Below are positions 13,517-29,347 of a DNA stretch of 64,000 nucleotides, in pieces. The notes below the pieces were generated by a model, which saw nothing but the letters and a program-made list of their open reading frames with translations, did not search any database and was not told the origin of the DNA. How positions within the stretch are numbered: position 1 is the first letter of the stretch; each line of letters opens with the position of its first letter. A program made the translations under genes and the position numbers. Source of the stretch: Phormidesmis sp. (lineage in GTDB: Bacteria > Cyanobacteriota > Cyanobacteriia > Leptolyngbyales > Leptolyngbyaceae); the NCBI GenBank assembly GCA_965248535.1, contig CBDFJR010000005.1, positions 1,088,001 to 1,152,000 on the forward strand, given 5' to 3'.

Positions 13517-13631
13517 GAATTTAATAAACATTTTAGGTGATTTAGAACACATCTACTCATGTCAAAAACTCTCTACGCTAGCTGACAGGCTGATCCCATT
13601 CTCGATTTCTAAAGCTGTTTCACAAGTTGTC

Positions 13632-15575
13632 ATGGTGAATCGTAGCGATATTAACTTTTCTGACCCCGCGATCGACGCTGAATCTGCTCCCCTTTTAGCG
13701 TCTCTAAGCTCGTCTCAACTAAACCTCCTCCCTGCTGATGCTGCTCAAAGCCCTGTTGTAACGACTATGCAAAACACGGACGATCTCGACAAACTTTTAG
13801 GCATTTTGCCCGACGCGATCCGGGTGCATTTAGAAAACCATCCTCAGCTTGATAGCCTTGTCGAAGTTGTCATGGATCTAGGACGACGACCCGAAGCCCG
13901 GTTTCCTGGCAAAGCGGAATATCTGGCTGAAACGCCCATCACTCAAGCCGATTTAGATGACAGCATCACTAGGGTCGGCGACTTTGGAGGAGACAATCGG
14001 GCCGGAATCGAGCGCACCCTGCACCGCATTAGCGCTATTCGCAACCGTCGGGGAGACGTGATTGGGTTAACCTGCCGGGTCGGACGGGCGATTTTTGGCA
14101 CGATCGGAATGATTCGTGATTTAGTCGAAAGCGGTCGATCAATTTTGATGCTCGGTCGCCCCGGAGTCGGCAAAACCACCGCCCTGCGAGAAATTGCCCG
14201 CGTGTTGGCAGACGAGTTAGATAAGCGAGTTGTGATTATCGACACATCCAACGAAATTGCAGGTGATGGAGATGTGCCCCACCCAGCGATCGGGCGCGCC
14301 CGCCGAATGCAAGTTTCTCGCCCTGAGCTTCAGCACCAAGTGATGATCGAGGCGGTTGAAAACCACATGCCCGAAGTGATCGTGATTGACGAGATTGGCA
14401 CCGAGCTAGAAGCGCTGGCGGCCCGCACGATCGCCGAGCGAGGCGTGCAACTCGTTGGCACGGCCCACGGAAATCAGCTAGAAAACCTGATTAAAAATCC
14501 GACGCTCTCTGATCTGGTCGGCGGCATTCAGTCTGTGACTCTAGGAGATGAAGAAGCGAGACGACGGGGCAGCCAAAAGAGTGTGTTAGAACGCAAAGCG
14601 CCGCCCACTTTTGATATTGCGGTCGAGATGACAGAGCGGCAAAAGTGGGTCGTGCATGAACAGGTCGCTGACACGATCGATATGCTGCTGCGGGGCAGAA
14701 AGCCCAATCCTGAAGTTAGAAGCGTTAACGAGGCTGGAGACGTGACGGTGACTCACGAGTTGTCAAGCAGCCCAGAAGCCTTGCAAACAGGAGGGCGAAC
14801 GCGATCGAATGGGGTTCGTCACAATCCCCTATCTCTCGCACCTACCCCGGCTCAGGAAGGATTTTTTACGCCGCCCCCTCAAGGTCGCGGGTGGAGATCG
14901 TCGGGCAAAATCAAGCCACCGCCCACCGCCCCGCTTTCCCCCGAACAGCAGACCTTTGAGCAGATGTTGGATGTGTCGCTAAACCGAGCGTTTGACGCAA
15001 GAGATGAAGGGCTGCGGCTGACTCAAGAGTCTGAGAATGGGGAATATATCCCCGGCCCCAATGGCGAAGATCTGCCTCTGCACATCTATCCTTATGGGGT
15101 GAGTCGCCACCAGTTAGATCAGGTCGTCCGCACGCTAAATTTGCCGATCGTGTTGACCAAAGACATTGATCACGCAGACGCGGTTTTGGCGCTGCGATCG
15201 CACGTCAAAAATCATTCTAAACTGCGCCACTTAGCAAAATCTCGCCAGATCCCCATTCACACCCTCAAGGCTAGCAGTGTGCCGCAAATTGCTCATTCTC
15301 TGCGGCGCTTGCTAAATATGGATGATCCCGCTATGCCCGATGCAGCAGAGTTAGACCTGTTTGTGCGCGGAGATAGCGAAGACGAAATCGAGGCTCTCGA
15401 AGAAGCCAGACTTGCCGTAGAGCAGATTGTCATTCCCAAAGGGCAGCCTGTTGAGCTTTTGCCCCGTTCTGCACTGGTTCGCAAAATGCAGCATGAGTTG
15501 GTAGAGCACTATCGTTTACAGTCCCGCAGTTTTGGAGACGAGCCAAACCGCAGACTGCGGATCTACCCAGCCTGA
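13632..15575 (+). CDS. Ycf45-like AAA ATPase with C-terminal R3H domain
   Basis: Walker [26 protein letters not shown]3H motif. Confidence 0.88.
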
Positions 15576-15666
15576 CCTAGAGGTTTGAGGTTTGAATTTA
15601 GGCAAGTCACTGCTAGACTCAAAACGCTCATAGATTGCTGTTCATCTCCTCAAAACGCTCTTTGCC

Positions 15667-16800
15667 ATGCTTGAGTTCATTCGCTCAGATCTCGCCCAGC
15701 TTGCGGCTTACAACACTCAACACACCGACAATTCTCAAGAGCTTACGTCTTTAGAAAGTCGGGTTGATCGAGTCGATGTCAACGAAAGTCCCTATGACTT
15801 GCCGGATGAACTCAAGCAAAAACTTAGCTGGACTTATCAGCAAACGATCGAGAATAATCGCTATCCCGATGGGGGTTATGAAGAATTAAAACGGGCGATC
15901 GCTGACTACGTGAATGAGTCGGCTACCACTACTACCTTCACCGCCGCCAACCTCTCGATCGGCAATGGCTCTGATGAGTTGATCCGTTCGCTGCTGATTG
16001 CGACCTGCATTGGGGGACATGGCTCGATTCTGGTCGCTGATCCGACATTTTCAATGTATGGCATTCTGGCCAAGACGCTAGGAGTTTCGGTGGTGACGAT
16101 CGGGCGATCGCCAACCAACTTTGAGATGGATTTGACGGCGGCTCAAGCGGCGATCGCTCAGACTCATACCCCTCCCATTCGTGCCGTTTTTGTCGTCCAC
16201 CCCAATTCACCGACCGGAAACGCACTCACTGAGCCGGAGCTAGACTGGCTGCGAAACCTGCCTCAAACGATTTTGGTAGTGATCGATGAGGCCTATTTTG
16301 AGTTCAGTCAGACGACCGTAGCAACTGGCCTTGCTCACCATCCAAACTGGGTGATTTTGCGAACCTTCTCGAAAGCATTGCGGCTGGCCGCTCATCGAGT
16401 TGGCTACGCGATCGCGCATCCTGAGTTAATCAGCGCCTTAGAAAAAGTTCGCCTGCCCTATAATCTTCCGAGCTTCACCCAGGCATCGGCGCTGGTGGCG
16501 ATCGCCCATCGTCATGAGCTACTGTCTGCCATCCCGCTAATGCTAACCGAGCGAAATCGGCTGATTCTAGCCCTATCGCAGCATTCGGAATTTCAGGTTT
16601 GGCAGAGTGCTGCTAATTTCGTCTACTTGCGCCTCAAAGTCCCTGATGCCAGTCCGAGGCTGGCTGCAATCTGTCAAGCCCTGAAAGCGCAAGGCACTTT
16701 AATTCGACACACGGGAAGTGGGCTGCGAATCTCGATCGGCACCCCCGACGAAAACCAACGCACTCTCGAACGATTTAGACAGGTAGTAGACGAAGGCTAG
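15667..16800 (+). CDS. hisC: Histidinol-phosphate aminotransferase
   Basis: [31 protein letters not shown]. Confidence 0.93.
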
Positions 16801-17291
16801 TTTCTAGGGGCAATATCTAACCCCCCGGCACCCCGACGCGCCATTTGAATCGTGTGAGGCAAAACTCCGACTAGCAACGCAAACGCATCATCGGGCAACT
16901 GGGCGATCGTTTCGGCTCCAAAATAATTTTCAAACTGATTCAGAATCAACTGAGCGCGCTGCAACGGTGCAGGGTTGTCGGTAAATTGTTGAGTCAGCCT
17001 GATCCACTGCCTCCTAATTAAATAAGCTTTTTGTCTTTCTTCATGATCCGCCGGGTGGATCAAAGAAGAGAGATCACCCACGGGCAAGATGCTTTCACAA
17101 TTCAGGTCAAAAAAGCTGCCTACAGCAGCCCCTGGCCCCGCAAACTCTGCATGGAATTGCTTATAGATGATTAACCCGTTGCGCTTGCGACTGTTGACAA
17201 CCAGCAACTTTCCATCGTTTAGCTGAGTCAAAATCTCCTGCACGCTCGCAGACTCGACAGCGCCTTGATGATTCAGGCTCTCGTTTTTCAT
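16797..17291 (-). CDS. Conserved cyanobacterial protein, Crp-like fold suspected
   Basis: [12 protein letters not shown] and C-terminal HTH-like [11 protein letters not shown]. Confidence 0.6.
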
Positions 17292-17682
17292 ACCGTCGAA
17301 GCCTTGAAAGCTGGGAACACGGCTATGGCAGATGAATCAGCAGTTTAAAGGTTGAAGTCAAGGGATCACTACCCGCAGCCAAATCTAATCACAGAGACTG
17401 ACGTTTTGGCTGTAACCGAAAGATCTAAACATGACGATCTTTATAACTACCAATAACCAACCTTGCCACTATATTCTATGGCAACCCGTTGCGATCAGGA
17501 GAATTCCCTGATGACTTTGAAGTCGCTATGAAGACAACCTCAAAATCTTAGAAATCTCCTAACTCAATCTTGATAAAAATTAATATAAAGCCGTTTTATA
17601 GGAGTCAAATTGCTCAGAAACTCAATCGAAATGATAAGCTCAATAGCCTAAGGCGATTCTAGCGAAGTCAACCCAGTGAGCC

Positions 17683-17910
17683 ATGAGTAACAAGCCGATC
17701 GCAGCCAGCTTTGATGAGAGCGCCCAGTCTGGGTTAACGCCTCCACCCCGTGAACCCTATCGATCGAGCCTGTCAGAAGACCTTGGGCAAGGATGGGCTT
17801 TTGTGCAGTTTGTTTGGCGCATTTCAAAGCGAATTAGAGGTGGCAAAAACCGCCTTCGCTTCATCATTGGGCTGATTTTTTGGAAACCTTTTTTGCCCGA
17901 CGATCGCTAG
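17683..17910 (+). CDS. Small hypothetical protein (75 aa)
   Basis: ATG-initiated ORF in otherwise empty space; amphipathic basic C-terminal half. Confidence 0.5.
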   Translation: MSNKPIAASFDESAQSGLTPPPREPYRSSLSEDLGQGWAFVQFVWRISKRIRGGKNRLRFIIGLIFWKPFLPDDR

Positions 17911-17929
17911 ACTGATTCCAAGGGTTTAA

Positions 17930-19299
17930 CAGAGTCGGCAGGAATTCCCCCACCTCTTGTAATGGAGCAACAGCGAAGCAACTTGCGTCATGGAAAAGGT
18001 GGAGGATGAAAGACTTATCAATGCTTCTTACTACTATTGTTAGTTGGTAGTAAAGTAGAGAAATGAAACACGCGGTCAAGATACGAATTTATCCAACTGA
18101 CGAGCAGAAAGAAGCGCTTTCAAAGGCGTTTGGTTGTGCTCGTTGGTTTTGGAATAACTCGTTAGCTGAAACCAATCGGCTCTACAAAGAGACGGGAAAA
18201 GGCTTATCTCAAGTTGGGATGAATAGCCGTCTACCCGCCCTCAAAAAAGAGTTTGAATGGTTAGCAGAACCTTATAGCCAAGTGCTGCAAAGCGTGTCTC
18301 TGAATCTATCAAGAGCGTTTATCAACTTCTTTGACGGGCGGGCTCAATTCCCTAACTTCAAGTCGAAGCATGGTCAGCAATCGATTCAGTATCCTCAAAG
18401 CGTCAAGCTGACGGGTGTTGGGTTGAAACTTCCAAAACTGGGAGTGGTCAAGGCTAAGATTCATCGCGTGTTTGAAGGGGATCTGAAAACTGTAACGGTT
18501 TCGCTGACTCCCTCTGGCAAATATTTTGCATCATTGCTGTTTGATAATGGACTGCCAAAAATTGAGGCATCTGGAGCAGGTAAGGCGGTCGGGATCGATT
18601 TGGGATTGACCCACTTTGCAATCACGTCTGACGGCTCTAAGTTTGATAATCCGAGAGTGTTGAAAAAGCATTCTCGCAACCTTAAACGGAAACAGCAAAA
18701 ACTTTCTCGCAAACAGAAGGGGTCAAGCAACCGTTCAAGCGCACGTCGCATCGTGGCACGGGTTCACGAAAAGATTGCGAACGTGAGAAAAGACTTTCTG
18801 CATAAGCTCTCGCGCAAAATGGTCAACGAAAACCAAGTGATCTGCGTGGAAGACTTAGCAGTCAAGAATATGGTGAAAAATCACAACTTAGCCAAAGCTA
18901 TCAGCGATGCGAGTTGGAGCGAATTTACCAAAATGTTGAGCTATAAAGCAGGACAGGATGGAAAGATTTATCAAGAAGTTGACAGGTTTTTTCCATCCTC
19001 AAAGACCTGCTCAGTCTGCCTCAATCGAGTTGGAAGCCTCGCGTTAGAAATCCGGTCATGGCAGTGTCAGAACTGCGGGACAAAGCATGACCGGGATGTG
19101 AATGCGGCGATCAACATTCGAGATGAAGGTTTGCGTATTTTGGCGTTAGGAACTAGCGCTGCTGCCAATGGAGGGAAGGTAAGTCCGAGGGTTGGACGGC
19201 GTAAGTCATCCGTATCTAAGGCTCTTCCCGTTGAAATTGGAAGCCCCCACTCAGCGACCGAAGCGCGTAGCGCGTAGGAAGTCAGTGGGGGTAGTTCAC
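17930..19299 (+). mobile_element. IS200/IS605-family (IS1341-like, tnpB-only) element; left boundary uncertain (about 17921-17930)
   Basis: Left hairpin 17946-17955/17997-18006; right hairpin 19244-19251/19284-19291 preceded by GAAG and followed by TAGTTCAC; no tnpA. Confidence 0.85.
18063..19277 (+). CDS. tnpB: RNA-guided endonuclease TnpB
   Basis: HTH_OrfB N-terminus (RIYPT..FGCARWFWN), RuvC D-E-D (GIDLG, VEDL, HDRDVNAA), CxxC..CxxC zinc ribbon. Confidence 0.95.
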   Translation: MKHAVKIRIYPTDEQKEALSKAFGCARWFWNNSLAETNRLYKETGKGLSQVGMNSRLPALKKEFEWLAEPYSQVLQSVSLNLSRAFINFFDGRAQFPNFKSKHGQQSIQYPQSVKLTGVGLKLPKLGVVKAKIHRVFEGDLKTVTVSLTPSGKYFASLLFDNGLPKIEASGAGKAVGIDLGLTHFAITSDGSKFDNPRVLKKHSRNLKRKQQKLSRKQKGSSNRSSARRIVARVHEKIANVRKDFLHKLSRKMVNENQVICVEDLAVKNMVKNHNLAKAISDASWSEFTKMLSYKAGQDGKIYQEVDRFFPSSKTCSVCLNRVGSLALEIRSWQCQNCGTKHDRDVNAAINIRDEGLRILALGTSAAANGGKVSPRVGRRKSSVSKALPVEIGSPHSATEARSA

Positions 19300-19319
19300 G
19301 CGCCGTGTATTAAGTTTCA
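19140..19319 (+). ncRNA. Predicted TnpB omega/reRNA (scaffold over tnpB 3' end and right end; guide about 19300-19319); 5' boundary approximate
   Basis: Inferred from established TnpB architecture and the right-end TCAC at 19296-19299. Confidence 0.55.
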
Positions 19320-19328
19320 GGCAACGTC

Positions 19329-19838
19329 ATGTATTACGACCCGCATCAGTTTGAATTTGTCGATCGACTCGAGTCAAATTGGCTCGTCATCAAAGACGAA
19401 CTCAGTCGCCTGACCGATCAAGATTTTGTTCCCTACCCCGAAAAATATCTACTGCAAAAGAAGACCGGATGGGAGATCTTTGGCATTTATTTTCTAGGGG
19501 TGAAAATCGATATCAACTGTGAACTCTGCCCCGAAACTGCCAAACTGGTCAAAAGCATTCCTGGAATGGTGACAGCAGGCTTTTCTCGGCTAGCGCCAGG
19601 AGCGCATATCGTGCCCCACTCTGGCAAACCCAGCAGCGTGTTGCGGTGTCACTTGGGGCTGTCAGTGCCTGAAAAATGCGCGCTGCGAGTCGCCTCAGAC
19701 ATCAAAGCCTGGGTGAATGGGGAATGTCTCGTGTTTGATGACACCTCTGAGCATGAAGCCTGGAATCTCAGCGATCGCTACCGAGATGTCTTACTGCTCG
19801 ACTTTAAAATCCCGCCTGGTTTTGCTTTAAGGCGCTAA
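19329..19838 (+). CDS. Aspartyl/asparaginyl beta-hydroxylase domain protein (Fe/2OG)
   Basis: CPETA..IPG, AGFSRLAPGAHIVPH, LRCHLGL, FDDTSEHEAWN. Confidence 0.88.
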   Translation: MYYDPHQFEFVDRLESNWLVIKDELSRLTDQDFVPYPEKYLLQKKTGWEIFGIYFLGVKIDINCELCPETAKLVKSIPGMVTAGFSRLAPGAHIVPHSGKPSSVLRCHLGLSVPEKCALRVASDIKAWVNGECLVFDDTSEHEAWNLSDRYRDVLLLDFKIPPGFALRR

Positions 19839-19844
19839 GGCTAT

Positions 19845-20601
19845 TCACTTCGATATCTCCCAGCCTAAACGGGTCGGCTGTTGATAAATCCGTTTTAACG
19901 TGTTGATGTCTCTGGGCGATATCAGCGGCGGATTGCGAACCTGAGAGAAATATAGGGCATCGGTTTGTAGAGAACTGTGACCCCAGATGCCCAAGGCGTG
20001 GCCGAGTTCATGGCGGGCCGATGCCAGCACATAGGTTTCTGCCTGATTGGGCTGCACGACTATCGAGACAGCGATGCGCCAACACGGGCCGCTCGTTGGG
20101 TAAGGATTTTTGATAAAGCTCATAGCGCGTTTCAGCCGCCCGAACTCGCTGGGGAACGGCCGACTGTCCGGGGATGACTCGGAGCGGTAGGAACGATCGC
20201 CGCACCACAATATCGGCTGCCTCTAGTTGATCGACGACCTGCAAAGGAAGATAGACCCTCCACTCGCTCACCGCTTGCGCCACAGCTTTGATCCAAGCTT
20301 GAGCACGGACAGGGTTTGCTGTTTCTGACTCCTCGATCGGCTGCACATAGACCTTAATCGGAAACGCCGACCACACCAAATAGTTTGGCTGAGTTTTTTG
20401 GACTCGATCGAAATAGTCTCCCTGATGGGCAGGGTCGTGCCATTGGGCTAGCGACGGTGGCAGCGCGTGGGCTTTGAGAGTGGGCAGGGTTTCTTGAGCA
20501 GACAACGAAGCCTGCAAAATCAGCGCCAGAAAAATACACCCAAGCCAGCAAACCATTGCCAGAGGGTGCATTCTACCTCGACATAAATTCCACTTAGCCA
20601 A
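19845..20601 (-). pseudogene. Secreted metzincin-type Zn peptidase split by a frameshift near 20065-20070
   Basis: Signal peptide and N-terminal part in ORF 20008..20601; HELGHALGIWGH motif in ORF 19845..20210. Confidence 0.75.
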
Positions 20602-20604
20602 TGG

Positions 20605-20838
20605 TTATCGCCCTAGCCAGCCTGCACTGAGCACGATGGTCAGCCCAATAAACAGAATGGTCAGCGTCCAGGTGACCCGGTTAAGAGTTGTCTCAGCACT
20701 TTTGGTGCTTGTAAAGAGTTGAGCTTGCCCCCCTAAGCCGCTCAAGCCATCTCCTTTGGGGCTGTGCAGCAACACGAGCACAATGATCCCCACGGCGCAA
20801 AACATCCAAACCATCTTTAGAATCAAAACCAGCGTCAT
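20605..20838 (-). CDS. secG: Preprotein translocase SecG
   Basis: LVLLHSPKGDG..GGQAQLFTSTKSAETTLNRVTW. Confidence 0.95.
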   Translation of the reverse strand: MTLVLILKMVWMFCAVGIIVLVLLHSPKGDGLSGLGGQAQLFTSTKSAETTLNRVTWTLTILFIGLTIVLSAGWLGR

Positions 20839-20905
20839 GATGACAAATCCAATTAAAACAAATGAGTGAGTTGACTATGACTGATGCAACTCATGGCTAG
20901 GTTTA

Positions 20906-22504
20906 TTATCGCGCAATCTTGACCGGAGTTCGGTTTGCCCGCACGTCAAATGCAGCCGACTCGACGATCGAGCGCCCCGTCATTTCAGTCGGCTGCGGCA
21001 GCTTGAGAATATCCAAAATGGTTGGCGCGATGTCTGCTAACCGACCATCTTCTCTGAGGGAAACGTCTGTTCCATGTCCAGGAATCTTCAGCCCCTCCCC
21101 TTCTACCAGAATAAAGGGCACCGGGTTGGTGGTGTGAGCCGTCCAAGGATTGCCGTTTTCGTCCCACATCAGTTCGGCGTTGCCGTGGTCGGCAATGATA
21201 ATAGCTGTGCCACCAGCGCGATTTACCCGTTCTAGGAGGCGACCTAAACAGCGATCAACGGCTTCTAGAGCCGTGACGGTTGCATCCATTTGCCCCGTGT
21301 GCCCTACCATGTCAGGGTTTGCATAGTTGATGACCACGAGAGAATAGACGCGCTTTTCGATTGCCCCGATCGCCACATCGGTCACTGCCTCAGCCGACAT
21401 AGCCGGAGCGCTATCGTAAGTCATCACCATCGGACTCGGCACCAACTCTCGATCTTCACCGGGGAACGGCTCTTCTAAACCGCCGTTAAAAAAGTAAGTG
21501 ACGTGAGCATATTTCTCAGTTTCTGCGGCTCGAAATTGACGTAGCCCATTTCGAGAGATGACTTCGCCCAAAATATTGTTGAGATTCTGCGGCTCAAAGG
21601 CGACTAGAACCGGAAGTGAGGGATCGTACTGGGTGAACGTCACCAACGGTAGGGGGCGAATCTGTTCACGTTCAAAGCCCTTGAATTTGGGATCGGCCAG
21701 AGCCTGGGTGAGTTGACGCGCTCGATCGGGACGGAAGTTAAAGAAAATCACGCCATCGCCAGGCTCTAGGGCCCCCGGTGCAATGCGAGTCGGGATCACA
21801 AACTCATCGGTTTTGCCTGCGTCGTAGGAAGCTTGCAAAACCTCTAAGGCCGATCGACCGTCACCGTCTCCATCGTGGGTCATCACGTCATAGGCCAGCT
21901 TGACTCGCTCCCACCGATGGTCGCGATCGAGGCTGTAATAGCGACCGCTAAGGGTGACGATGTGACCTGTGCCGATACGATCGCAATAGTCTTGCAGTCG
22001 TCGAATTGCGTCTGCCCCTTCGGTCTGCTGCGTGTCTCGCCCGTCAGTAATGGCATGAATGCACACATTTTCAAGGCCTTGCTCTTTGGCCAAATCGAGC
22101 AACCCAAACAGATGACTGAGATGAGAATGCACCCCCCCGTCTGAACACAAGCCGACCAAGTGCAGTTTTCCGTGATTGCGCTGCACCTCCTGGCAAACCT
22201 TGACCAGGTTGGGGTTGCTCAACAAACTGCGATCTTCCACTGCATCCGAGATGCGCACTAGCTCTTGAGGCACGACCCTACCAGCACCAATGTTGAGGTG
22301 CCCGACTTCTGAGTTACCCATTTGCCCGTCAGGTAACCCGACATCTTTGCCAGCCGTGCGAATTAAGGTGTGGGGGTAGGCAGCCCACAGGCTGGTCATC
22401 ACAGGCGTTTGGGCGGCAGCAATGGCGTTCCCGTCTGTTTCTTCGCGGTAACCCCAACCGTCTAAGATGATCAGCACTACAGGAGAGACAGTCACCTGGG
22501 ACAT
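20906..22504 (-). CDS. gpmI: 2,3-BPG-independent phosphoglycerate mutase (start ATG 22504)
   Basis: LIILDGWG, GQMGNSEVGH, NFRPDRARQ, ETEKYAHVT, NPDMVGHTG, ADHGNAE. Confidence 0.96.
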   Translation of the reverse strand: MSQVTVSPVVLIILDGWGYREETDGNAIAAAQTPVMTSLWAAYPHTLIRTAGKDVGLPDGQMGNSEVGHLNIGAGRVVPQELVRISDAVEDRSLLSNPNLVKVCQEVQRNHGKLHLVGLCSDGGVHSHLSHLFGLLDLAKEQGLENVCIHAITDGRDTQQTEGADAIRRLQDYCDRIGTGHIVTLSGRYYSLDRDHRWERVKLAYDVMTHDGDGDGRSALEVLQASYDAGKTDEFVIPTRIAPGALEPGDGVIFFNFRPDRARQLTQALADPKFKGFEREQIRPLPLVTFTQYDPSLPVLVAFEPQNLNNILGEVISRNGLRQFRAAETEKYAHVTYFFNGGLEEPFPGEDRELVPSPMVMTYDSAPAMSAEAVTDVAIGAIEKRVYSLVVINYANPDMVGHTGQMDATVTALEAVDRCLGRLLERVNRAGGTAIIIADHGNAELMWDENGNPWTAHTTNPVPFILVEGEGLKIPGHGTDVSLREDGRLADIAPTILDILKLPQPTEMTGRSIVESAAFDVRANRTPVKIAR

Positions 22505-22757
22505 AAACAACGTCCTTCTAATGAATAATTTCTTCCGCAAATCATACCACTGGGATCAAGATCCTTGAAACGGCTCACCTTCGGTACATTCATTCTTTAT
22601 AAAGAGTGAATTTGACCACGCTAGCTTGAAGGGGAGGGCATCTCGATCACCAATCTGGCTGTTGATTAACTGCTCTAGGCGAACGGGCATTTGATTGCCC
22701 TATTCACCCATCAGATCTCAACGCTTTAAAGTGAATTGCCTTCTCTTTGTAGCGAAA

Positions 22758-24476
22758 TTAACGGCTCTTTTGGGTTTTCTTAGTCTTTTCTTTCTCTTTC
22801 TGTTTTTCTCGCTTTGCTTCAACTTTCGCGGCTTTCTCGGCTTCGATCGCGTCTAACTGAGCTTTCTCTTTTTCTTCAGCGACTTTATCGAGATAGTAGT
22901 GATAATCGCCGCGATAGAGCCGCAGTTCGCCATCTCGAATCTCGACGATTTTGTTGACGGTCTGAGAGATGAAATAGCGATCGTGGGAAACGATAATCAC
23001 GCTGCCGTCATAGTTCTGAATCGCTTCTTCCAGCATTTCTTTAGCAGGAATATCAAGGTGATTGGTCGGCTCATCTAGAATCAGCAGATTGGCGGGTTGG
23101 AGCAGCATTTTTGCCAAAGCCAATCGGGCTTTTTCTCCACCACTCAAGGCTTCTACCTTCTTAAAGACCGTATCGCCACTGAACAAAAATCGGCCTAACA
23201 GCGTCCGAACTTCTTCATTCGTCCATTTAGGAACTTCGTCGTGAATGGTTTCGATCACCGTTCTGTTTAGATCAAGCGCTTCTGCCTGGTTTTGCTCAAA
23301 ATAGCTGGGGATCACGTTATGATCCCCTAACTTAATGCTGCCATCGGTCGGCTTTTCTGCGCCTGTAATCAGGTGTAGTAGGGTCGATTTGCCTGCGCCA
23401 TTGGGGCCCAGAAAGGCAATGCGATCGCCGCGCTCAATCAGCAAATCGGCTCCTAAAAACAGAATTTTCTCGCCGTAGGTGTGAACCAGGTTGTCAATCA
23501 TCACCACTTCTCGTCCACTGCGAGGGGCGGGTGGAAAGCGAAAATGCAGCCCTCGCACGTCACTATCGGGTGCTTCAATCCGCTCGATTTTGTCTAGTTG
23601 TTTTTCGCGGCTTTTTGCCTGGGTGCTGCGGGTGGCGCTAGCCCGGAAGCGATCGACAAAAGTCTGCTGTTTCTCTAACTCTTTTTGCTGACGCTCAAAG
23701 GCGCTCATCTGGGCATCGCGCTGTTCTTGTTTTTGCAGCAGGTAGGTGGAGTAGTTGCCGAGATAGGTGGTCGAAACGCCGCGCTCGGTTTCAACAATTT
23801 GGGTGCAGAGTCGATCGAGAAACTCGCGGTCATGAGACACAATCACCATCGGAGTTGACAACCCTTTGAGGTAGGTTTCTAACCACTCGATCGTTTCGAG
23901 ATCTAAGTGGTTAGTCGGCTCGTCGAGCAGCAGCAAATCGGGCTTTTGCAGCAGAATTTTGCCTAAACTCATTCGCATTTGCCAGCCACCACTAAAGGCG
24001 CTAACCAAGCGATCCCCGTCTTCGATCTCAAAGCCCAACTCCGGCATGATCTTCTCAATTCGAGCGTCTAAGCCATAGCCGTCCAAACCTTCAAATCGTC
24101 GTTGCAGCTTGTCCATTTTGTGGATCAGCTTGTCTAACTCTTCAGGATTGGCGGTCTCCATGTCGCGATGCACCTGAGTCAGTGCGTCGTGAACATTGTT
24201 TGCCTCGCCAAAGGCGCGCCAAAATTCTTCTCTGACAGTGCGGGTGGGATCAACTTCAAATTCTTGCGTCAAATAGGCGATGTGCAGACTAGCCGGACGG
24301 ATGACTTCTCCGGTGGTCGGCTCCATTTCGCCCGCGACGATTTTAAGCTGGGTCGATTTTCCTGCCCCGTTGACCCCGACCAAGCCGATGCGATCGCCAA
24401 CTTTGACCTCCCAATTAATATCTTTCAACACTTCGCCAGTCGGATAGATTTTGCTGACGTGTTCGAGTCGCAACAT
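22758..24476 (-). CDS. ABC-F family ATP-binding protein (start ATG 24476)
   Basis: Two ABC cassettes (GVNGAGKST / FSGGW / DEPTNHLD, twice); no transmembrane segments. Confidence 0.92.
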   Translation of the reverse strand: MLRLEHVSKIYPTGEVLKDINWEVKVGDRIGLVGVNGAGKSTQLKIVAGEMEPTTGEVIRPASLHIAYLTQEFEVDPTRTVREEFWRAFGEANNVHDALTQVHRDMETANPEELDKLIHKMDKLQRRFEGLDGYGLDARIEKIMPELGFEIEDGDRLVSAFSGGWQMRMSLGKILLQKPDLLLLDEPTNHLDLETIEWLETYLKGLSTPMVIVSHDREFLDRLCTQIVETERGVSTTYLGNYSTYLLQKQEQRDAQMSAFERQQKELEKQQTFVDRFRASATRSTQAKSREKQLDKIERIEAPDSDVRGLHFRFPPAPRSGREVVMIDNLVHTYGEKILFLGADLLIERGDRIAFLGPNGAGKSTLLHLITGAEKPTDGSIKLGDHNVIPSYFEQNQAEALDLNRTVIETIHDEVPKWTNEEVRTLLGRFLFSGDTVFKKVEALSGGEKARLALAKMLLQPANLLILDEPTNHLDIPAKEMLEEAIQNYDGSVIIVSHDRYFISQTVNKIVEIRDGELRLYRGDYHYYLDKVAEEKEKAQLDAIEAEKAAKVEAKREKQKEKEKTKKTQKSR

Positions 24477-24623
24477 GAGGGAGGCTCCAGAGAATCGGGT
24501 GAGAATTGTGAAATCGTAAGTAAATCTTAACAAACGCTGGCTCGATCAAACGGGATTCGATCGGGCGAATCTTAGCAAATCATGATCTGTTGATTGGGAA
24601 TCTTGCGTTGTTTGCAGGGTCTT

Positions 24624-24650
24624 GGGGGCACGGCGATGCCATGCCCGTAC
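24624..24650. repeat. REP-like palindrome GGGGGCACGGCGATGCCATGCCCGTAC
   Basis: GGGCACGGC-GAT-GCCATGCCC imperfect hairpin; a degenerate relative GGGCACATCAATGCCCTAC lies at 54259-54277. Confidence 0.6.
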
Positions 24651-24688
24651 TCAAGGGAAATAAAGGGAAAAAGGGGAGGGCTGCGGGT

Positions 24689-25981
24689 TTAGATATCGGG
24701 TTCTTCGGCGATCGTGAAGAAATCAGCCTGTTCTTGCAATGAGGCTTCGAGTAGGTCGGTCGCGCCCAAGTTGACGCTTTCTTGATAAAGATAAGCGATG
24801 TCTAACGCTTCTAAGGTTGCCCGAATATGGGTGCGAATGGGTTGACTGCCGATCGCTTGAATCAATTCAGCAACATCTAGTTTTGCATCCCAAGCGTAGG
24901 ATACGCCGTGAAGTTTGACTAGATGATTGAGTAACTGAATCAAACTAGTAGTTTCTAGGGGGCGAATCGTGGGACAAGTTGACCCGATCGCAGTCTCAAA
25001 GAAATTTTGCATCACCGGGCCCGCATCGGTGCCAAATTTCTCGCTCGCTAACTCAGGAATTTGGCTACGATCGTTCTTGGCGCTGGGCGTACTGGTGCCG
25101 CTAAACCAAACATCATTTCGCAAACTAGAGGCAACCACTCCGAAGGTGTAAATCGGATAGGGATTCTCGCAGAATAATTCTTGCTCTCCATCTCGGCGCA
25201 CGGGGCGATCGCTCCAGTTCAGCAACCAATTGAGATTGCGATAGGCCTGAAGCCGTCCGACTTTGCCGAGTCGCCCGATTAATTCGACCTCATCGAGCAA
25301 CAGCACCCAACCTTTGTAGCCGCACAGCGCGATCGCGTCTGCCATCACGCCAAAATAGGCGCTGCCGTGCTGCGTAGTGCGAAAATTCATCTCAAATTTG
25401 GGCAACGACTCGCCTCGGCAGTTGCGATGAATGCGCTTCAGTTCGGGGCTGGTGATCCGCGTGCCCATCAAGTCGCCGTAGAGCAGATCCTGTTCTTCGC
25501 CAGAGGTGAAAAAATAGTCTTCCAAGACGATTTCTGGGAGAGGATGACTGTAGCGATCGCGCTCCGCAAGGCGGCTGTTGAGCAAATCTCCCGCTTTTTT
25601 AGAGCTTAACGCTTTGGTCAATCCTGCCAGTTTAGAGTCAGGTGTGCGAAGCACCGAAGCGACTCGTCCATAAAAGTTAAGCAGGTGATGACAAGACACT
25701 TCCCGGCTGAGAGAAACTCGACTAACGGCAAATCCCAGATCCAGCGCGACGTGTTCAACCGTGGTCAGGGCATGGGTTTTTCCTTGTCCGTAAGGCCCCC
25801 AAGCCAGCCGTCCTACAGGACGTTTGCCCTGAGAGAACTGCTCCAGATCCTGTCGAATCAGGTCGGTTAAAGATTCTCGCAGATCGGGCAACTCTCGCGT
25901 AGAGGTGCGGGTGGGAATTCCAGCCCGAAGCGACTCGACAACGGCGATCGCCTTTCTGCGATTAGCGTCATATCGTTCCAT
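24689..25981 (-). CDS. DUF2791 / BrxD-like P-loop ATPase (copy 2)
   Basis: VESLRAGIP, Walker A GPYGQGKTH, ALDLGFAVSRVSLS, Walker B WVLLLDEVE. Confidence 0.8.
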   Translation of the reverse strand: MERYDANRRKAIAVVESLRAGIPTRTSTRELPDLRESLTDLIRQDLEQFSQGKRPVGRLAWGPYGQGKTHALTTVEHVALDLGFAVSRVSLSREVSCHHLLNFYGRVASVLRTPDSKLAGLTKALSSKKAGDLLNSRLAERDRYSHPLPEIVLEDYFFTSGEEQDLLYGDLMGTRITSPELKRIHRNCRGESLPKFEMNFRTTQHGSAYFGVMADAIALCGYKGWVLLLDEVELIGRLGKVGRLQAYRNLNWLLNWSDRPVRRDGEQELFCENPYPIYTFGVVASSLRNDVWFSGTSTPSAKNDRSQIPELASEKFGTDAGPVMQNFFETAIGSTCPTIRPLETTSLIQLLNHLVKLHGVSYAWDAKLDVAELIQAIGSQPIRTHIRATLEALDIAYLYQESVNLGATDLLEASLQEQADFFTIAEEPDI

Positions 25982-26029
25982 CGCGGTCTACCTCAAAAAT
26001 TTGGAACAGGATGTTTTGATGCACTCGAT

Positions 26030-27211
26030 TTATCCGTCGCTTAGTGCCATTAGCGTTGCGCCAATCACGTTGGCTCGAAGTTGGCTATAGCCATCCAAAG
26101 TCGGGAGATCGCGATCGACCACCTGAAATCCGGCTTCTTGAAATAATCGCCGCAGTCTCATCTGCACCGCCTGCGGAAAGCCTTTACCGTTAGCAACGAG
26201 ATGGCTATCCGTATCTACAATGTCGGAGAGCGGATTGAACTTCTCGATCGGCAGCAGACCCGTTTGTAATCTCATCCATAACGCTTCGTAGCTTTTGAAG
26301 CCGCGCCGATCGTCGTCAATCATCTCGCGCCGACCCGCCAGCAGCAGCAAAAAATGATCCAGCAGTTCGACATCATCAATAATCTGGCGAAACAGTTCGC
26401 AGGTGTCTTTAATGGCGTTGGCGGTATATCGAAAGCGGCGAGTTTCAGGATGGCGCTCGGTCATGACTTCTAGATCGTCGATCGCTACCACCAACCCCGT
26501 CATGCCCGCCAGATGCAGTAGCCGGATTAAGGAATTTAACCAGTAGCGGGCGTTTGGTTTTTGCAACCGTTCGTAAAGCAACGTCGATTGCTTTTGGTGT
26601 CGCTCTAGCTTCTCGCCAGACAGCCACTTTAACGCCAGCCGAACGCTGTCTTCATTGCCGCTGATCAGTCGATTGCTGATCACGCTGTAGGCAAACGCCC
26701 TAAACGATGAGCCAAAGTCAACATCTCTGAGGGTCAGCCCGATCGCTCGTTTGATCTCATGCACTGCTAAATCGCGAGTCAACCCCTGATCTTCAATCAG
26801 CAAAGACAGAATCTGATCGCTGTCGTCATATTGCCCATAGCCCAGTTTTTTGGTGACGAGTTGGCATAGTCCACTTACCAACCGCTCTTTGTCAAGTTGT
26901 TGCACGATCGCCCGATAAAACCCTGGCAAGTCGTTGAGGCGATAGTCTCGTGCTGAGAGATAGACGGTTTGATAATCCTGCGTTTGGGCATCTTGCAGCC
27001 CAGAGCGCAGCAGATGTGTTTTGCCTGTGCCCACACCGCCCACCAGCACTTTGACCTTGCTGCCACCATCGGCAATGTAGTTAGTTAAATAGTGTTCGCG
27101 AAGATAATCGAGCCAGCGATCGCGCCCCAAAGTCATTCCCGTCAAAAGCTCTTGATTGACCGGAGGCTGACCCGACAGCAATGCTTCAATATCCAGTTCG
27201 TCGATCTGCAT
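26030..27211 (-). CDS. DUF2791 / BrxD-like P-loop ATPase (copy 1)
   Basis: GGSKVKVLVGGVGTGKTHLL, ALKWLSGE, Walker B LVVAIDDLE, GFKSYEALWMRL. Confidence 0.8.
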   Translation of the reverse strand: MQIDELDIEALLSGQPPVNQELLTGMTLGRDRWLDYLREHYLTNYIADGGSKVKVLVGGVGTGKTHLLRSGLQDAQTQDYQTVYLSARDYRLNDLPGFYRAIVQQLDKERLVSGLCQLVTKKLGYGQYDDSDQILSLLIEDQGLTRDLAVHEIKRAIGLTLRDVDFGSSFRAFAYSVISNRLISGNEDSVRLALKWLSGEKLERHQKQSTLLYERLQKPNARYWLNSLIRLLHLAGMTGLVVAIDDLEVMTERHPETRRFRYTANAIKDTCELFRQIIDDVELLDHFLLLLAGRREMIDDDRRGFKSYEALWMRLQTGLLPIEKFNPLSDIVDTDSHLVANGKGFPQAVQMRLRRLFQEAGFQVVDRDLPTLDGYSQLRANVIGATLMALSDG

Positions 27212-27219
27212 CGGTCGCT

Positions 27220-28023
27220 CTATGCCTCTTCAACTAGATGAATCGCCAGGGTGCTGACTCGGCTTTCTTGCCCTTGACTATTGACCAGCAAAAAGCTGCT
27301 GGACTGGTTACGAGAGGGTTCTAGCTCAAACTGATAGCGATCGTAGCGAATCTCGGTCTGTTCTTTGAGTCGCGCTAGATCGTAGATAAATAGTGGCTCA
27401 GGATAGTCTTGCTTAGTAGATTGCTTGAGCGTCAAGAGGCGATAGATGTCTTTGAGCGGCACAGATTGCCCCCACACCACCTCTTCTTTTTGCAGCATCA
27501 GCCGATTTAGCATTTCATAGGGGCTGAGTAGCTCTCGACAAAAGCGGCCCGCGTCAAATTTGCTGTCAATCACTCGTCGATATTGTCCGGCAACCCAGGG
27601 CGCTAACTGCTCAGGGGCAAAGGCTTTGATCTGCTGCGATCGCCGCCCCATGCTCAACTTCACCACGCCCTGATCGTGGCTAAACGTCAGCTTAAAGGGC
27701 GGAAACTCGTAGGTTGGAAACTCGCCCCTGACGGGAATTCCGGCTGCTTTGAGAGCACTCTCTAACTCCGTTGGGTAGTCATCAGACGAGACAAAATCTT
27801 GATCGGCTTGCAGCGCCTTGCGGATCACGGTTTGTTGGTCAGCCCAGCGATCGCCTAGCCTGCCTATTTCGTCTGTCAACACCTCTAGCGTTTGAGTCGA
27901 GGTTTTGAGATCCCATTCTTTGCGAGATTTCTTGACCGCAGCCCACACTTTGATCAGGCGCTTTAAGGCAGCATCAATCTCACTTAAAGCCAGTTTTTCT
28001 GATGCACTATCGGACGATTCCAT
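27220..28023 (-). CDS. Hypothetical protein (267 aa), first gene of the DUF2791 operon
   Basis: Long ORF 8 bp upstream of the ATPase; helical N-terminus; no family recognised. Confidence 0.75.
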   Translation of the reverse strand: MESSDSASEKLALSEIDAALKRLIKVWAAVKKSRKEWDLKTSTQTLEVLTDEIGRLGDRWADQQTVIRKALQADQDFVSSDDYPTELESALKAAGIPVRGEFPTYEFPPFKLTFSHDQGVVKLSMGRRSQQIKAFAPEQLAPWVAGQYRRVIDSKFDAGRFCRELLSPYEMLNRLMLQKEEVVWGQSVPLKDIYRLLTLKQSTKQDYPEPLFIYDLARLKEQTEIRYDRYQFELEPSRNQSSSFLLVNSQGQESRVSTLAIHLVEEA

Positions 28024-28075
28024 GACTTGGAGGAGTTAGAGAATTGAATTCTCCCTATCGTATCGCACAGTTGAG

Positions 28076-28426
28076 CTACCCACCCTCAAAACTACTCGGC
28101 TCCAGAACAAAGAGACCCTCTGAATCTGGCTCAAAATCTACAACATCCACCACGGCATCAAGATTTAACTCGCCATATAAGTGAGGGAATTGTTCGCCGC
28201 CCTCCAACCCTTCGTACTTAATTTCGGACTGCACTTTAGCCGGATCGATGCAGAGCAAGACCAGCGATCGTTGACCCCGATAAAACGAGTTGGCCACCCA
28301 AACCACTTGTTGAGTCGTTGAGCAGTGAATAAATCCCTCAGAGTCTAATGACGCACAGCGATAGACTCCCGTTTGCTTGGCGTTTTGCCACTGCTGATTA
28401 GAAGTGATGTGCAAAATCCAACTCAT
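28076..28426 (-). CDS. DUF952 family protein
   Basis: SLDSEGFIHCST, FPHLYGEL. Confidence 0.85.
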   Translation of the reverse strand: MSWILHITSNQQWQNAKQTGVYRCASLDSEGFIHCSTTQQVVWVANSFYRGQRSLVLLCIDPAKVQSEIKYEGLEGGEQFPHLYGELNLDAVVDVVDFEPDSEGLFVLEPSSFEGG

Positions 28427-28460
28427 GGCGATGACGAGAGCGTTTCTCTAGGGGTCATCG

Positions 28461-28637
28461 CTAATTAACTCCGCTCAGTTGCCCAGCGACAGCATGGAGT
28501 TGCGGGTTAAGGATAGGCAGAGAAAAGGCGTGAAACCCGGACAGCCCAGGATTAACCTCTGATTTGGGGCTACCCATACCTGCCAGAAGGCTCAGTAGTA
28601 GGGTGATAGCTGCGGCTTGAAGGAGTCTTTCTAGCAT
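28461..28637 (-). CDS. Unannotated 58-aa small protein with signal-peptide-like N-terminus
   Basis: MLERLLQAAAITLLLSLLAGMGSPKSEVNPG...GVN*; purine-rich GAGAGGTCGGAG directly upstream; below the ORF-track cutoff. Confidence 0.6.
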   Translation of the reverse strand: MLERLLQAAAITLLLSLLAGMGSPKSEVNPGLSGFHAFSLPILNPQLHAVAGQLSGVN

Positions 28638-28772
28638 CTCCGACCTCTCGATTCCAGGAACTTGTTGATGTGCGATCGCGCTTTGTCAGTGATTCTACCC
28701 AAGTCAGTGATCTTACTTAAGTAGGATGCGATCTACATATCCTTTAGCTTCTTCTATTTGAGGGAAAGAGGC

Positions 28773-28788
28773 TGTGACCGCTCTCACT
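28773..28788. promoter_or_regulatory. CRP-like site TGTGA-N6-TCACT
   Basis: One mismatch to TGTGA-N6-TCACA; intergenic, upstream of the 58-aa ORF. Confidence 0.35.
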
Positions 28789-28885
28789 TCGTCAAAAAAT
28801 TTATCATTCCCTTACATTCCAGGGTAGTTAAAGGAAGGGAACGCGATCGCCCCCCTCCAAGCGCCGCCAGATCACAGACCCCTGT

Positions 28886-29347
28886 TCACGCAGCATTGCA
28901 CCGAATCTCAATCAAAAACCCATCTGGGTCATAAAAGTAGATGCCCCGTCCCGTCGGACGGCTCACCGGGCCGTGATCGATGAGAATCTGATTTTGGTTG
29001 AGAACGTCAACCGCCTGATCAAAAAACTGAGGCGCAATATCAAAAGCGAGATGATTGGCGCGAGTAAACTGCTGGTTGGGGTCAGGGTGAGGCGGAGACA
29101 AGTCTGGCTCCCAAAATAAATCAAGAATAGTGTCATCGGGCGTTTTAAAGTTCGCCACTTTTCCGGCGGCGACTTCTGCCTTCAGGGTTTCGGGCACCTC
29201 TGCCCCCGTTAATTCATGCAGCCCTAGGATTTTGCCGTAGAAGTGCCGTGACCTTTGCATCTCTTTGACGTTGAGGGCAATGTGATGGACGCGACGCAAA
29301 CAGCCCAAGGGCAAAGCCGTGTTGAGAGAAGGAGAACTGGAAAGCAT
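28886..29347 (-). CDS. VOC/glyoxalase family protein (start ATG 29347)
   Basis: VHHIALNV..FYGKILGL, NHLAF, YFYDPDGFLIEI. Confidence 0.88.
   Translation of the reverse strand: MLSSSPSLNTALPLGCLRRVHHIALNVKEMQRSRHFYGKILGLHELTGAEVPETLKAEVAAGKVANFKTPDDTILDLFWEPDLSPPHPDPNQQFTRANHLAFDIAPQFFDQAVDVLNQNQILIDHGPVSRPTGRGIYFYDPDGFLIEIRCNAA

Follow-up and report, generated by a model that had tools for sequence, protein, structure and literature searches.

A stand-alone cassette of two divergent PF10923 ATPases and an uncharacterised partner protein in Phormidesmis sp.

The 64,000-nucleotide stretch of Phormidesmis sp. DNA analysed here (the window) contains three adjacent genes, termed A, B and C, two of which encode ATPases related to the BrxD and SngB components of the BREX and Shango systems. 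The locus raises the question of whether such a trio constitutes an uncharacterised defence system in its own right, as a sequence-only reading had proposed, or is a remnant of a known system, or represents a module with a different role.

Gene layout and properties of the three proteins

The open reading frame list and a reading of the junctions confirm that the three genes are co-oriented on the minus strand and separated by gaps of 8 bp and 48 bp. The features of the locus are as follows.

28024..28075, minus strand: 52-bp spacer separating gene A from the DUF952 gene upstream (ORF coordinates and sequence)
27220..28023, minus strand: gene A, 267 aa (ORF and translation)
27212..27219, minus strand: 8-bp A-B intergenic gap (sequence: A stop codon TAG, 8 bases, B start codon ATG)
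26030..27211, minus strand: gene B, 393 aa, PF10923 ATPase (ORF and Pfam)
25982..26029, minus strand: 48-bp B-C intergenic gap (sequence: B stop codon TAA, 48 bases, C start codon ATG)
24689..25981, minus strand: gene C, 430 aa, divergent PF10923 paralogue (ORF and Pfam)

The genes are real, since orthologues of all three are found under purifying selection in many genomes. The trio is flanked by genes for an ABC-F protein (22758-24533) and a DUF952 protein (28076-28426), and its GC content of 0.50-0.54 is the same as that of the flanks. DUF952 is not a constant neighbour, being located 3.3 kb from A at one related locus (L019) and not detected at L014-L016. It is possible that the 52-bp spacer serves as a promoter region or that A is transcribed by read-through from DUF952; a consensus promoter scan of positions 24300-28900 returned 0 sites, and terminator-like sites were no more frequent than in shuffled sequences. 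As the sequence-only reading had noted, PglZ, methylase, TerB and Lhr-like helicase partners are absent from the surroundings (24 ORFs scanned, 10.4-42.9 kb of the window), and the same ORFs include no BrxHI, PglX, PglW or BrxC.

Both ATPases belong, as previously supposed, to PF10923 (BrxC_BrxD, formerly DUF2791), with scores of 85 bits for B (E 6.5e-24, residues 9-318) and 64 bits for C (E 1.5e-17, best stretch residues 8-119) against a Pfam gathering cut-off of 22.2 bits, which the orthologues at L014, L029, L031 and L035 likewise exceed. The motifs that had been quoted for all three proteins are present in the translations (for A, VPLKDIYRLLTL and YPEPLFIYDLARL). B is an ORC/Cdc6-like AAA+ protein with the Walker A motif GGVGTGKTH (residues 58-66) and the Walker B motif LVVAIDDLE (240-248); the corresponding motifs of C are GPYGQGKTH (62-70) and WVLLLDEVE (225-233). 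Residues G58, G61, G63, K64, H66 and D245 of B are invariant in 18 of 18 orthologues, as are G62, Y64-H70, W225, V226, L228, D230, E231 and E233 of C, and both proteins are predicted to be active P-loop NTPases of the AAA+ type from their conserved Walker A lysine and Walker B acids (K64/D245 in B and K68/D230/E231 in C). BrxD is the best PADLOC match of both (B 69.5 bits, C 44.9 bits), and the SngB model scores 41.4 and 35.8 bits respectively. Scores of 71 bits (B) and 45.8 bits (C) against the NCBIfam BrxD equivalog (NF033438), which has a cut-off of 350, indicate that neither is BrxD proper. Matches to DnaA and Hda are weak and concern the P-loop region, PDB sequence searches gave P-loop-level matches only, and no nuclease, TIR, pore or other effector domain is recognisable in A, B or C with Pfam, PADLOC or NCBIfam. 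In phylogenetic trees, support is 100 for the B clade as well as for the C clade, and the two trees share groupings; judged from these sequence comparisons, B and C are an anciently diverged PF10923 pair that is co-inherited.

The A protein has no match in Pfam (E<=0.1), NCBIfam or PADLOC, and its 104 homologues at E<=1e-3 are without exception named only "hypothetical protein". The family comprises 329 cluster representatives at E<=1e-3, with no relatives found in viral contigs. Two AF2 models of high confidence (pLDDT 90.0 and 90.8) predict an antiparallel helical hairpin (residues ~5-78), an alpha/beta domain (~82-153) and a winged-helix-like domain (~154-265), bearing out the helical N-terminus expected from the sequence. 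The winged-helix-like character of the C-terminus may also hold, as this domain resembles the winged helices of kleisin, ORC1/Cdc6, RPC62 and ESCRT-II at VIA-align Z scores of 5.1-6.3, all of which lie below the caution level of 8. The whole-model VIA search mostly retrieved generic coiled-coil matches to the hairpin, and for neither model of the 267-aa protein did Foldseek against the PDB give a match at E<=1e-3. A is at most a candidate DNA-binding subunit; with a net charge of -2 and a pI of 5.46, its winged-helix-like domain is slightly on the acidic side. A appears to represent an uncharacterised protein family that is so far missing from defence-system catalogues.

Known systems and helicase-linked relatives

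Shango is described, in the part of bioRxiv 10.1101/2022.11.11.516204 that was consulted, as a TerB-like protein (SngA), an ATPase (SngB) and a DEAD/DEAH helicase (SngC). The trio resembles it in combining a PF10923-type ATPase with a small non-enzymatic first gene. In contrast to SngA, however, A contains no TerB domain (no Pfam match at E<=0.1 and no PADLOC match), the trio has two paralogous ATPases rather than one, and no SngC-type DEAD/DEAH (Lhr-like) helicase is adjacent. The genome from which the window derives encodes a canonical SngB-SngC pair elsewhere (SngB 573.9 bits, SngC 823.6 bits), and the SngB scores of B and C fall far below that of this SngB; on sequence grounds the two ATPases are homologous to SngB, yet of a different subfamily. 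A 268-aa gene beside the genomic SngB was considered as a homologue of A and rejected (hhalign probability 0.2%). Neither the SngB-SngC pair nor the helicase-linked relatives of the trio described below had been noticed in the sequence-only reading.

In type 2 BREX (Pgl), BrxD is an ORC/Cdc6 AAA+ ATPase that is tightly paired with BrxHI, for which it is proposed to act as loader or activator (PMC12839542, in the part consulted). B and C share a Pfam family with BrxD, but the trio differs from the BrxD-BrxHI dyad in two additions, gene A and a further paralogous ATPase, and in lacking BrxHI. The set that defines BREX (PglZ, a PglX-type methyltransferase and BrxC in one locus) is absent from the trio's locus. 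Searches of PADLOC, NCBIfam and Pfam match the trio to no named system, in keeping with the earlier impression of novelty. Neither the paired-ATPase cassette nor the A family was found described in the literature searched, which included part of PMC12839542, a paper whose supplements may list BrxD homologues outside BREX.

ORC/Cdc6-type initiators and AAA+ helicase loaders share an AAA+ core with Walker A and B motifs. The trio has the same core, and the cassette of its relatives is associated with helicases. Unlike these initiators, however, it shows no origin-binding or replicative context, and its predicted winged-helix-like domain would belong to another subunit, A, instead of being fused to the ATPase. 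A role as a replacement for DnaA was rejected, as each of the five trio-bearing genomes tested also encodes DnaA.

Further close parallels are cassettes in which an A-family gene (A'), followed by two PF10923 paralogues in the same order (B' and C'), is accompanied by an SF2 helicase. A and A' share 26-28% identity and are matched by hhalign with a probability of 96% (E 3.5e-9). Two cyanobacterial genomes (G192 and G180) encode A'-B'-C' with a BrxHI/SngC-like helicase: the G192 cassette (L032) is intact and its helicase scores 329.7 bits against BrxHI, whereas IS elements have disrupted the G180 copy (L033), for which no helicase was seen. Further examples are located on the Desulfomonile tiedjei plasmid pDESTI.01 (NC_018026.1), beside AbiEi/Eii, and on plasmid3 of Aulosira laxa NIES-50 (AP018310.1), immediately after PglZ-BrxD-BrxHI. 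The helicases of the four-gene relatives score 247.6-274.8 bits against the SngC model. More broadly, cassettes of the sister clades adjoin interchangeable SF2 helicases (BrxHI/SngC-like, XPB-like, SNF2 and Cas3) in BREX, CRISPR-Cas, AbiE, restriction-modification and other defence contexts. A, B and C are adjacent in 17 of 17 loci of another phylum, with an XPB-like helicase as neighbour in six, SNF2 in two, Cas3 within type I CRISPR-Cas in three, BrxL in one and none of these in the remaining five. No A' relatives were found in phage records, and a plasmid search with a distant member (P0162) gave no relatives.

The window's trio shares the defining arrangement of an A-family protein gene followed by B- and C-type PF10923 paralogues, and its gene order and homology make it a member of this wider, apparently unnamed cassette family. 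It differs from the four-gene form in its chromosomal housekeeping setting (versus plasmids and defence islands) and in having no adjacent SF2 helicase. C groups with C' of the four-gene cassette (SH-aLRT 89), B occupies a long separate branch, and B' groups with SngB (support 84). In the C tree the trio falls in a stand-alone clade of 22 rows (support 100) spanning several phyla; 20 of the rows have no helicase neighbour, and in the other two (L071 and L072) a split SF2 helicase adjoins A. A cyanobacterial subclade within it comprises 13 rows (support 98). Screening of Cyanobacteriota flanks by tblastn with seven query helicases, which is not exhaustive, revealed no helicase near the cassette at 36 of 37 loci (33 unique), the sole exception (L035) being a weak hit 5.4 kb away. 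Five genomes (G033, G415, G170, G429 and G434) encode no BrxHI/SngC-like helicase anywhere at E<=1e-10; a SngC-type query of the same kind recovered the SngC-like gene of the window's own genome. In the first four of these, which bear the trio and are 99-100% complete, B and C are the only PF10923 genes. Dependence of the trio on the genomic SngB-SngC pair, or on another BrxHI-like helicase, was rejected for the clade on the basis of four complete genomes without them.

Conservation and possible roles

The three genes are conserved together, as the sequence-only reading presupposed, with A, B and C adjacent in 6/6, 5/5 and 23/30 loci of three surveys (four of the 30 loci lie on the same contigs as loci of the six-locus survey), in addition to the other-phylum loci described above. 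All three genes are intact and full-length in 23 of the 30 loci, and one locus (L073) retains only fragments of each. The five genomes with a lone A all encode full-length orthologues of B and C elsewhere (57-72% identity). Within the genus, where A is present in six of seven genomes and the position of the trio is syntenic, dN/dS is 0.054-0.077 for A, 0.039-0.044 for B and 0.040-0.054 for C, compared with 0.035-0.047 for gpmI and 0.020-0.027 for ABC-F among the flanking genes, and dS of the trio is similar to that of the flanks. A is found in 10 of 41 relatives. Within the phylum the distribution is patchy, the trio being found in 10 of 401 sampled genomes, three of the 10 being weak hits; such rarity is more in line with accessory genes than with a core function. 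The neighbours at cyanobacterial trio loci are chromosomal housekeeping genes and not defence genes. The pattern of identity is not strictly phylogenetic, members from another class being no less similar than some members of the same class, and metagenome-assembled genomes that carry the labels of other phyla fall within the trio's clade, which together suggest horizontal transfer.

We tentatively favour an explanation, which we regard as a serious possibility just short of probable, in which the trio is an intact and functional member of the cassette family, namely a heteromeric ORC/Cdc6-type ATPase with an adaptor, originating from a helicase-linked immune module. B and C would assemble as a hetero-oligomeric ATP switch, with A as its adaptor via the coiled-coil hairpin, the alpha/beta domain and the winged-helix-like domain, and the resulting complex may recognise a particular DNA or nucleoprotein state. 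In the helicase-linked clades this complex would load or activate the helicase, by analogy with the BrxD-BrxHI proposal (PMC12839542, part consulted). In the stand-alone clade the module could work via a helicase or nuclease whose gene lies elsewhere, or by ATP-dependent binding alone. The trio would then be a module of immune origin that has become fixed in the chromosome, with a present role in either constitutive defence or genome maintenance. The helicase coupling of the sister clades need not extend to the stand-alone clade, and we counted this against the explanation.

A second explanation, which we consider rather unlikely, is that the trio has lost its immune function and been domesticated to serve DNA metabolism, in repair, recombination or the management of chromosome copies. 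Its partner might be a core helicase, for instance the conserved XPB-like protein that is encoded, together with a Bax1-like nuclease, 12-15 kb from the trio. The housekeeping neighbourhoods, the purifying selection and dS at the level of the flanks, the presence of A in most genomes of the genus and the retention of all three genes after dispersal are in favour of such a role, as are the tie of the other-phylum sister clade to XPB-like helicases (6/17 loci), the 31% identity of the window's helicase to these proteins and the Bax1-like match, which at 155.5 bits falls short of the cut-off of 500. However, the trio is rare (10/401) and the XPB-like helicase near-universal (36 of 41 relatives), making a general housekeeping role unlikely; the same comparison (36/41 versus 10/41 for A) gives no support for specific co-occurrence or co-variation of this helicase with the trio. 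The indications of horizontal transfer and the retention of DnaA, which leaves the initiator unreplaced, also argue against this explanation.

It is unlikely that the trio forms an anti-phage or anti-plasmid system complete in itself and needing no helicase, in which the ATPases and A sense invading DNA and either block it directly or trigger growth arrest. In favour of such a system, the profiles that B and C match most closely are those of BrxD and SngB, both defence ATPases, sister clades occur in the immune contexts listed above, and the distribution within the phylum is patchy. Moreover, two non-cyanobacterial members of the stand-alone clade are located beside PDC-S01 and a DrmD-like helicase (L071) and beside Uma2, a DNA methylase and DUF6079 (L110). 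Against the candidate defence role originally proposed for the trio stand the housekeeping neighbours of the cyanobacterial loci, evolution (dN/dS and dS) at the level of those neighbours with synteny across the genus, and the persistence of genes split across the genome in five cases, which is unusual for mobile defence cassettes. The lack of a recognisable effector domain in A, B and C, and of relatives in viral contigs or phage records, points in the same direction.

In line with the sequence-only reading, it is highly unlikely that the trio is a decaying remnant of BREX, Shango or the four-gene helicase cassette, despite the existence of helicase-bearing relatives, the split helicases next to A in L071 and L072 and the fragments in L073, as the frames are full-length in most loci, dN/dS is 0.04-0.08, the stand-alone state is common to a fully supported clade of several phyla, and four complete trio-bearing genomes contain zero BREX or Shango genes; the open frames and dN/dS also exclude recent-pseudogene status for the orthologues.

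Implications for BrxD- and SngB-type ATPases

Few components of BREX and Shango are as poorly understood as the BrxD- and SngB-type ATPases, and the only published role that we met is the proposal, in the part of PMC12839542 consulted, that they load or activate a neighbouring helicase. The analysis presented here shows that a paired ATPase with a dedicated small partner forms a portable cassette, associated with at least four helicase families and present even in type I CRISPR-Cas loci. It is conceivable, though distinctly improbable in our estimation, that A-B-C is a universal, swappable sensor and loader for SF2 helicases of the BrxHI/SngC-like, XPB-like, SNF2 and Cas3 kinds in prokaryotic immunity, and that the cyanobacterial copy has been domesticated to drive a core chromosomal helicase or nuclease (e.g. 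the conserved XPB-like and Bax1-like proteins) in genome maintenance; if true, an immune module would here have been exapted into DNA repair. An entire clade does without the helicase and is strongly constrained in the chromosomes of cyanobacteria, so that the stand-alone trio constitutes a natural separation-of-function experiment, which should show what the ATPase pair and A do alone.

Organisation and conservation of the three-gene unit

The sequence-only reading drew attention to three co-oriented genes (termed A, B and C), and three minus-strand ORFs lie at exactly the positions it gave, separated by the 8 bp and 48 bp that we also read from the junction sequences. These genes and a nearby transposon-type gene are as follows:

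28023..27220, minus strand, gene A (ORF, 267 aa)
27211..26030, minus strand, gene B (ORF, 393 aa)
25981..24689, minus strand, gene C (ORF, 430 aa)
18063-19277, plus strand, TnpB gene of the IS200/IS605 family (423.2 bits, just below the exception cut-off of 425)

All the motifs quoted in that reading, those of the P-loops as well as those of A, are present in the ORF translations, and profile matches bear out the flanking genes that it named, ABC-F (ABC_tran, 1.5e-53; NCBIfam ABC-F, 459.8 bits, passing the cut-off of 380) and DUF952 (2.8e-34). The GC content of the trio (0.50-0.54) is the same as that of its flanks, and the TnpB gene, which scores 355.8 bits against the guided_TnpB subfamily, is the sole mobile-element gene found within about 15 kb. 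Farther neighbours in the window are gpmI, hisC, ldpA, an Ada-like gene, a glyoxalase-fold gene, rlpA, a gene for a PtrA-like regulator, uppS, cdaA, lysA, a ClpB-like gene and mscL. On a contig of Phormidesmis priestleyi ULC007 (L019/L046) the distance from DUF952 to A is about 3.3 kb, compared with 52 bp in the window, so that the stretch just upstream of the trio is polymorphic for an insertion or deletion.

Both ATPases had been ascribed to DUF2791, and a profile search places them there: B and C score 85 and 64 bits against PF10923 (BrxC_BrxD, formerly DUF2791), above the gathering score of 22.2. Their top PADLOC match is BrxD (69.5 and 44.9 bits, respectively), followed by SngB (41.4 and 35.8 bits), and their scores against the NCBIfam BrxD equivalog (71 and 45.8 bits) fall far under the cut-off of 350. 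In alignments of 18 orthologues, the invariant residues include G58, G61, G63, K64, H66 and D245 in B and G62, Y64-H70, W225, V226, L228, D230, E231 and E233 in C. With no variation in the Walker A and B residues, both proteins look catalytically competent on the basis of their sequences. Trees of B and of C give matching groupings.

The expectation that the trio is conserved as a unit is borne out: A, B and C are adjacent in 6/6 loci from relatives, in 5/5 Cyanobacteriota loci that are more distant but match A strongly, and in 23 of the 30 loci from a one-genome-per-species scan, four of which lie on the same contigs as loci in the relatives set. The remaining seven comprise one locus cut by a contig end, one with fragments only (L073) and five with A alone. 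All five A-alone genomes encode full-length B and C orthologues elsewhere (57-72% identical), paired in three genomes (G432, G433 and G435) and on separate contigs in two (G434 and G436). The fragments in L073 (7001-8142), from a MAG, align over 75 aa of A, 173 aa of B and 88 aa of C, and this locus appears to hold a decayed trio. Within the genus A is found in 6/7 genomes, the missing one being 65% complete, and across the phylum in 10/401 sampled genomes, three of these with weak matches only.

Comparison of the window trio with three same-genus loci gave dN/dS values of 0.054-0.077 for A, 0.039-0.044 for B and 0.040-0.054 for C, indistinguishable from those of the flanking gpmI (0.035-0.047) and close to those of ABC-F (0.020-0.027), at similar dS. 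Synteny of ABC-F with the trio holds throughout the genus and extends to a second one, and other cyanobacterial trio loci have housekeeping neighbours, e.g. alaS, gcpE, minCDE, psbB, cox genes and ABC transporters. The cyanobacterial members thus resemble fixed chromosomal genes in their housekeeping neighbours, their synteny, their low dN/dS and their retention even where dispersed.

Predicted structure of protein A

Protein A, whose family numbers 329 clusters, has no match in Pfam, PADLOC or NCBIfam, and we found no solved structures related by sequence to any of the trio proteins. It was modelled confidently, both at full length (pLDDT 90.0, pTM 0.71) and as residues 82-267 alone (pLDDT 90.8, pTM 0.83). 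The predicted architecture is a long antiparallel helical hairpin followed by an alpha/beta domain and a C-terminal helix-helix-helix-strand-strand unit, so that the helical N-terminus proposed from the sequence is upheld by the model. The winged-helix-like C-terminus proposed alongside it finds matches only under the caution level: in an all-against-all structural search residues ~154-265 matched the condensin kleisin C-terminal winged-helix domain (Z 6.3), ORC1/Cdc6 (6.1), and RPC62 and ESCRT-II (5.9). Residues 82-155 match generic alpha+beta sandwiches (Z up to 6.7, also below the caution level), and Foldseek searches of the PDB with the A models returned nothing at E<=1e-3. Given the slight acidity of the winged-helix-like domain (net charge -2, pI 5.46), a protein-protein role is no less likely than DNA binding.

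Helicase-linked relatives and placement of the window trio

Two weak A matches in the phylum sample (26-27% identity) point to a four-gene cassette, in which counterparts of the trio (A', B' and C') precede a helicase. In the intact example (L032), A' has 279 aa, B' 417 aa (PF10923, 1.6e-52) and C' 399 aa, and the helicase is a DEAD/DEAH protein of 704 aa (BrxHI, 329.7 bits; SngC, 274.8 bits). The other (L033) retains A' and B' with C' interrupted by IS insertions and hsdM adjoining, and no helicase was seen at the locus. Comparison by hhalign shows A' to be a homologue of A (probability 96%, E 3.5e-9). The cassette also occurs on a Desulfomonile tiedjei plasmid (NC_018026.1), adjoining AbiEi/AbiEii, and on the conjugative plasmid3 of Aulosira laxa NIES-50 (AP018310.1; L085, record 12393-24287), where it directly follows a BREX type-2-like block of PglZ (1056.7 bits), BrxD (552.4 bits) and BrxHI (929.2 bits). 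AP018310.1 therefore has two BrxD-type/BrxHI-type sets in tandem.

Further arrangements are found in the phylum containing a Peptococcaceae-labelled MAG, where the A-family profile matched 19/401 genomes. We analysed 17 of 20 places, leaving out the centre genome's own locus, a place at a contig start and a 58-residue partial match. A, B and C occur together in 17/17 loci (for L120, A was taken from the profile search). The immediate partner is an XPB-like SF2 helicase in six loci, an SNF2 helicase in two and BrxL in one; three trios lie inside type I CRISPR-Cas and five have no helicase. In the CRISPR-embedded loci (L115, L118 and L119, in genomes G514, G606 and G662) the trio sits between cas1 (with cas4, csa1 or a HEPN/NTase pair) and cas3 or cas7, and it may represent an unrecognised CRISPR-associated accessory module. 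In L121 and L122 (G476 and G720), a conserved ORF of 186-193 aa that matches no Pfam family stands between A-B-C and the SNF2 helicase, with all of these genes in the same orientation; in both loci the frame of A contains one in-frame TAG.

A tree of 37 C and C' proteins resolved an XPB-linked clade (support 100), a Cas3-linked clade (99), an SNF2-linked pair (100) and a stand-alone clade (100) of 22 rows, 20 of them without a helicase neighbour. The exceptions (L071 and L072) have an SF2 helicase, split between two ORFs, adjoining A in a defence-island setting (PDC-S01, 627 bits; DrmD-like, 261 bits), and the settings of non-cyanobacterial members of this clade are partly defence-like (L071 and L110). 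The cyanobacterial sequences are nested inside it as a subclade of 13 rows (support 98). A tblastn search with seven helicase queries gave no match near 36/37 Cyanobacteriota trio loci (33 of the 37 unique), and the single match is weak and 5.4 kb away. Taken together, these arrangements fit a portable A-B-C module with an interchangeable helicase partner, one clade of which has lost cis-linkage to any helicase.

Comparison with known systems and candidate partners

That the trio is a remnant of BREX or Shango, or depends on either, is contradicted by four trio-bearing genomes (99-100% complete) in which B and C are the only PF10923 genes and a search for SngC/BrxHI-like helicases gave no match at E<=1e-10; the trio is therefore neither remnant nor dependent. 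It differs from BREX in lacking PglZ, PglX and BrxC, from Shango in lacking the TerB protein and SngC, with weak SngB-model scores, and from the A'-B'-C'-helicase cassette in lacking the helicase. In the main texts of the papers searched, we came across no account of the A family or of a cassette with paired ATPases. Other genes of note in the same genome are:

G000:C2:2453565-2457260 (L042:13565-17260), another contig of the same genome, SngB-SngC pair (PADLOC)
43357-44838, minus strand, XPB-like SF2 helicase, 493 aa (31% identical to other-phylum trio-linked helicases)
40095-41309, minus strand, Bax1-like endonuclease homologue (155.5 bits, below the cut-off of 500)

The SngB and SngC proteins are canonical (573.9 and 823.6 bits, PADLOC). 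No TerB/SngA gene was detected beside them, and the pair may be a two-gene Shango variant or have an SngA too divergent to detect; a divergent 268-aa neighbour has no Pfam match and is unrelated to A. The XPB-like helicase and the Bax1-like gene lie 12-15 kb from the trio. As the former is found in 36/41 relatives, it is a core cyanobacterial gene, and because A is found in 10/41, it is only a candidate trans partner of the trio. Replacement of DnaA by the trio is excluded, since DnaA was found in 5/5 trio-bearing genomes tested.

PMC12839542 proposes that BrxD loads or activates BrxHI. By analogy with that proposal, we infer that B and C may form a heteromeric ATP switch of the ORC/Cdc6 type, for which A would serve as adaptor. 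We regard the trio as a variant form of the known BrxD/SngB-type ATPase modules; its own interest lies in a helicase-less, chromosomally fixed clade and a sister clade embedded in CRISPR-Cas loci.
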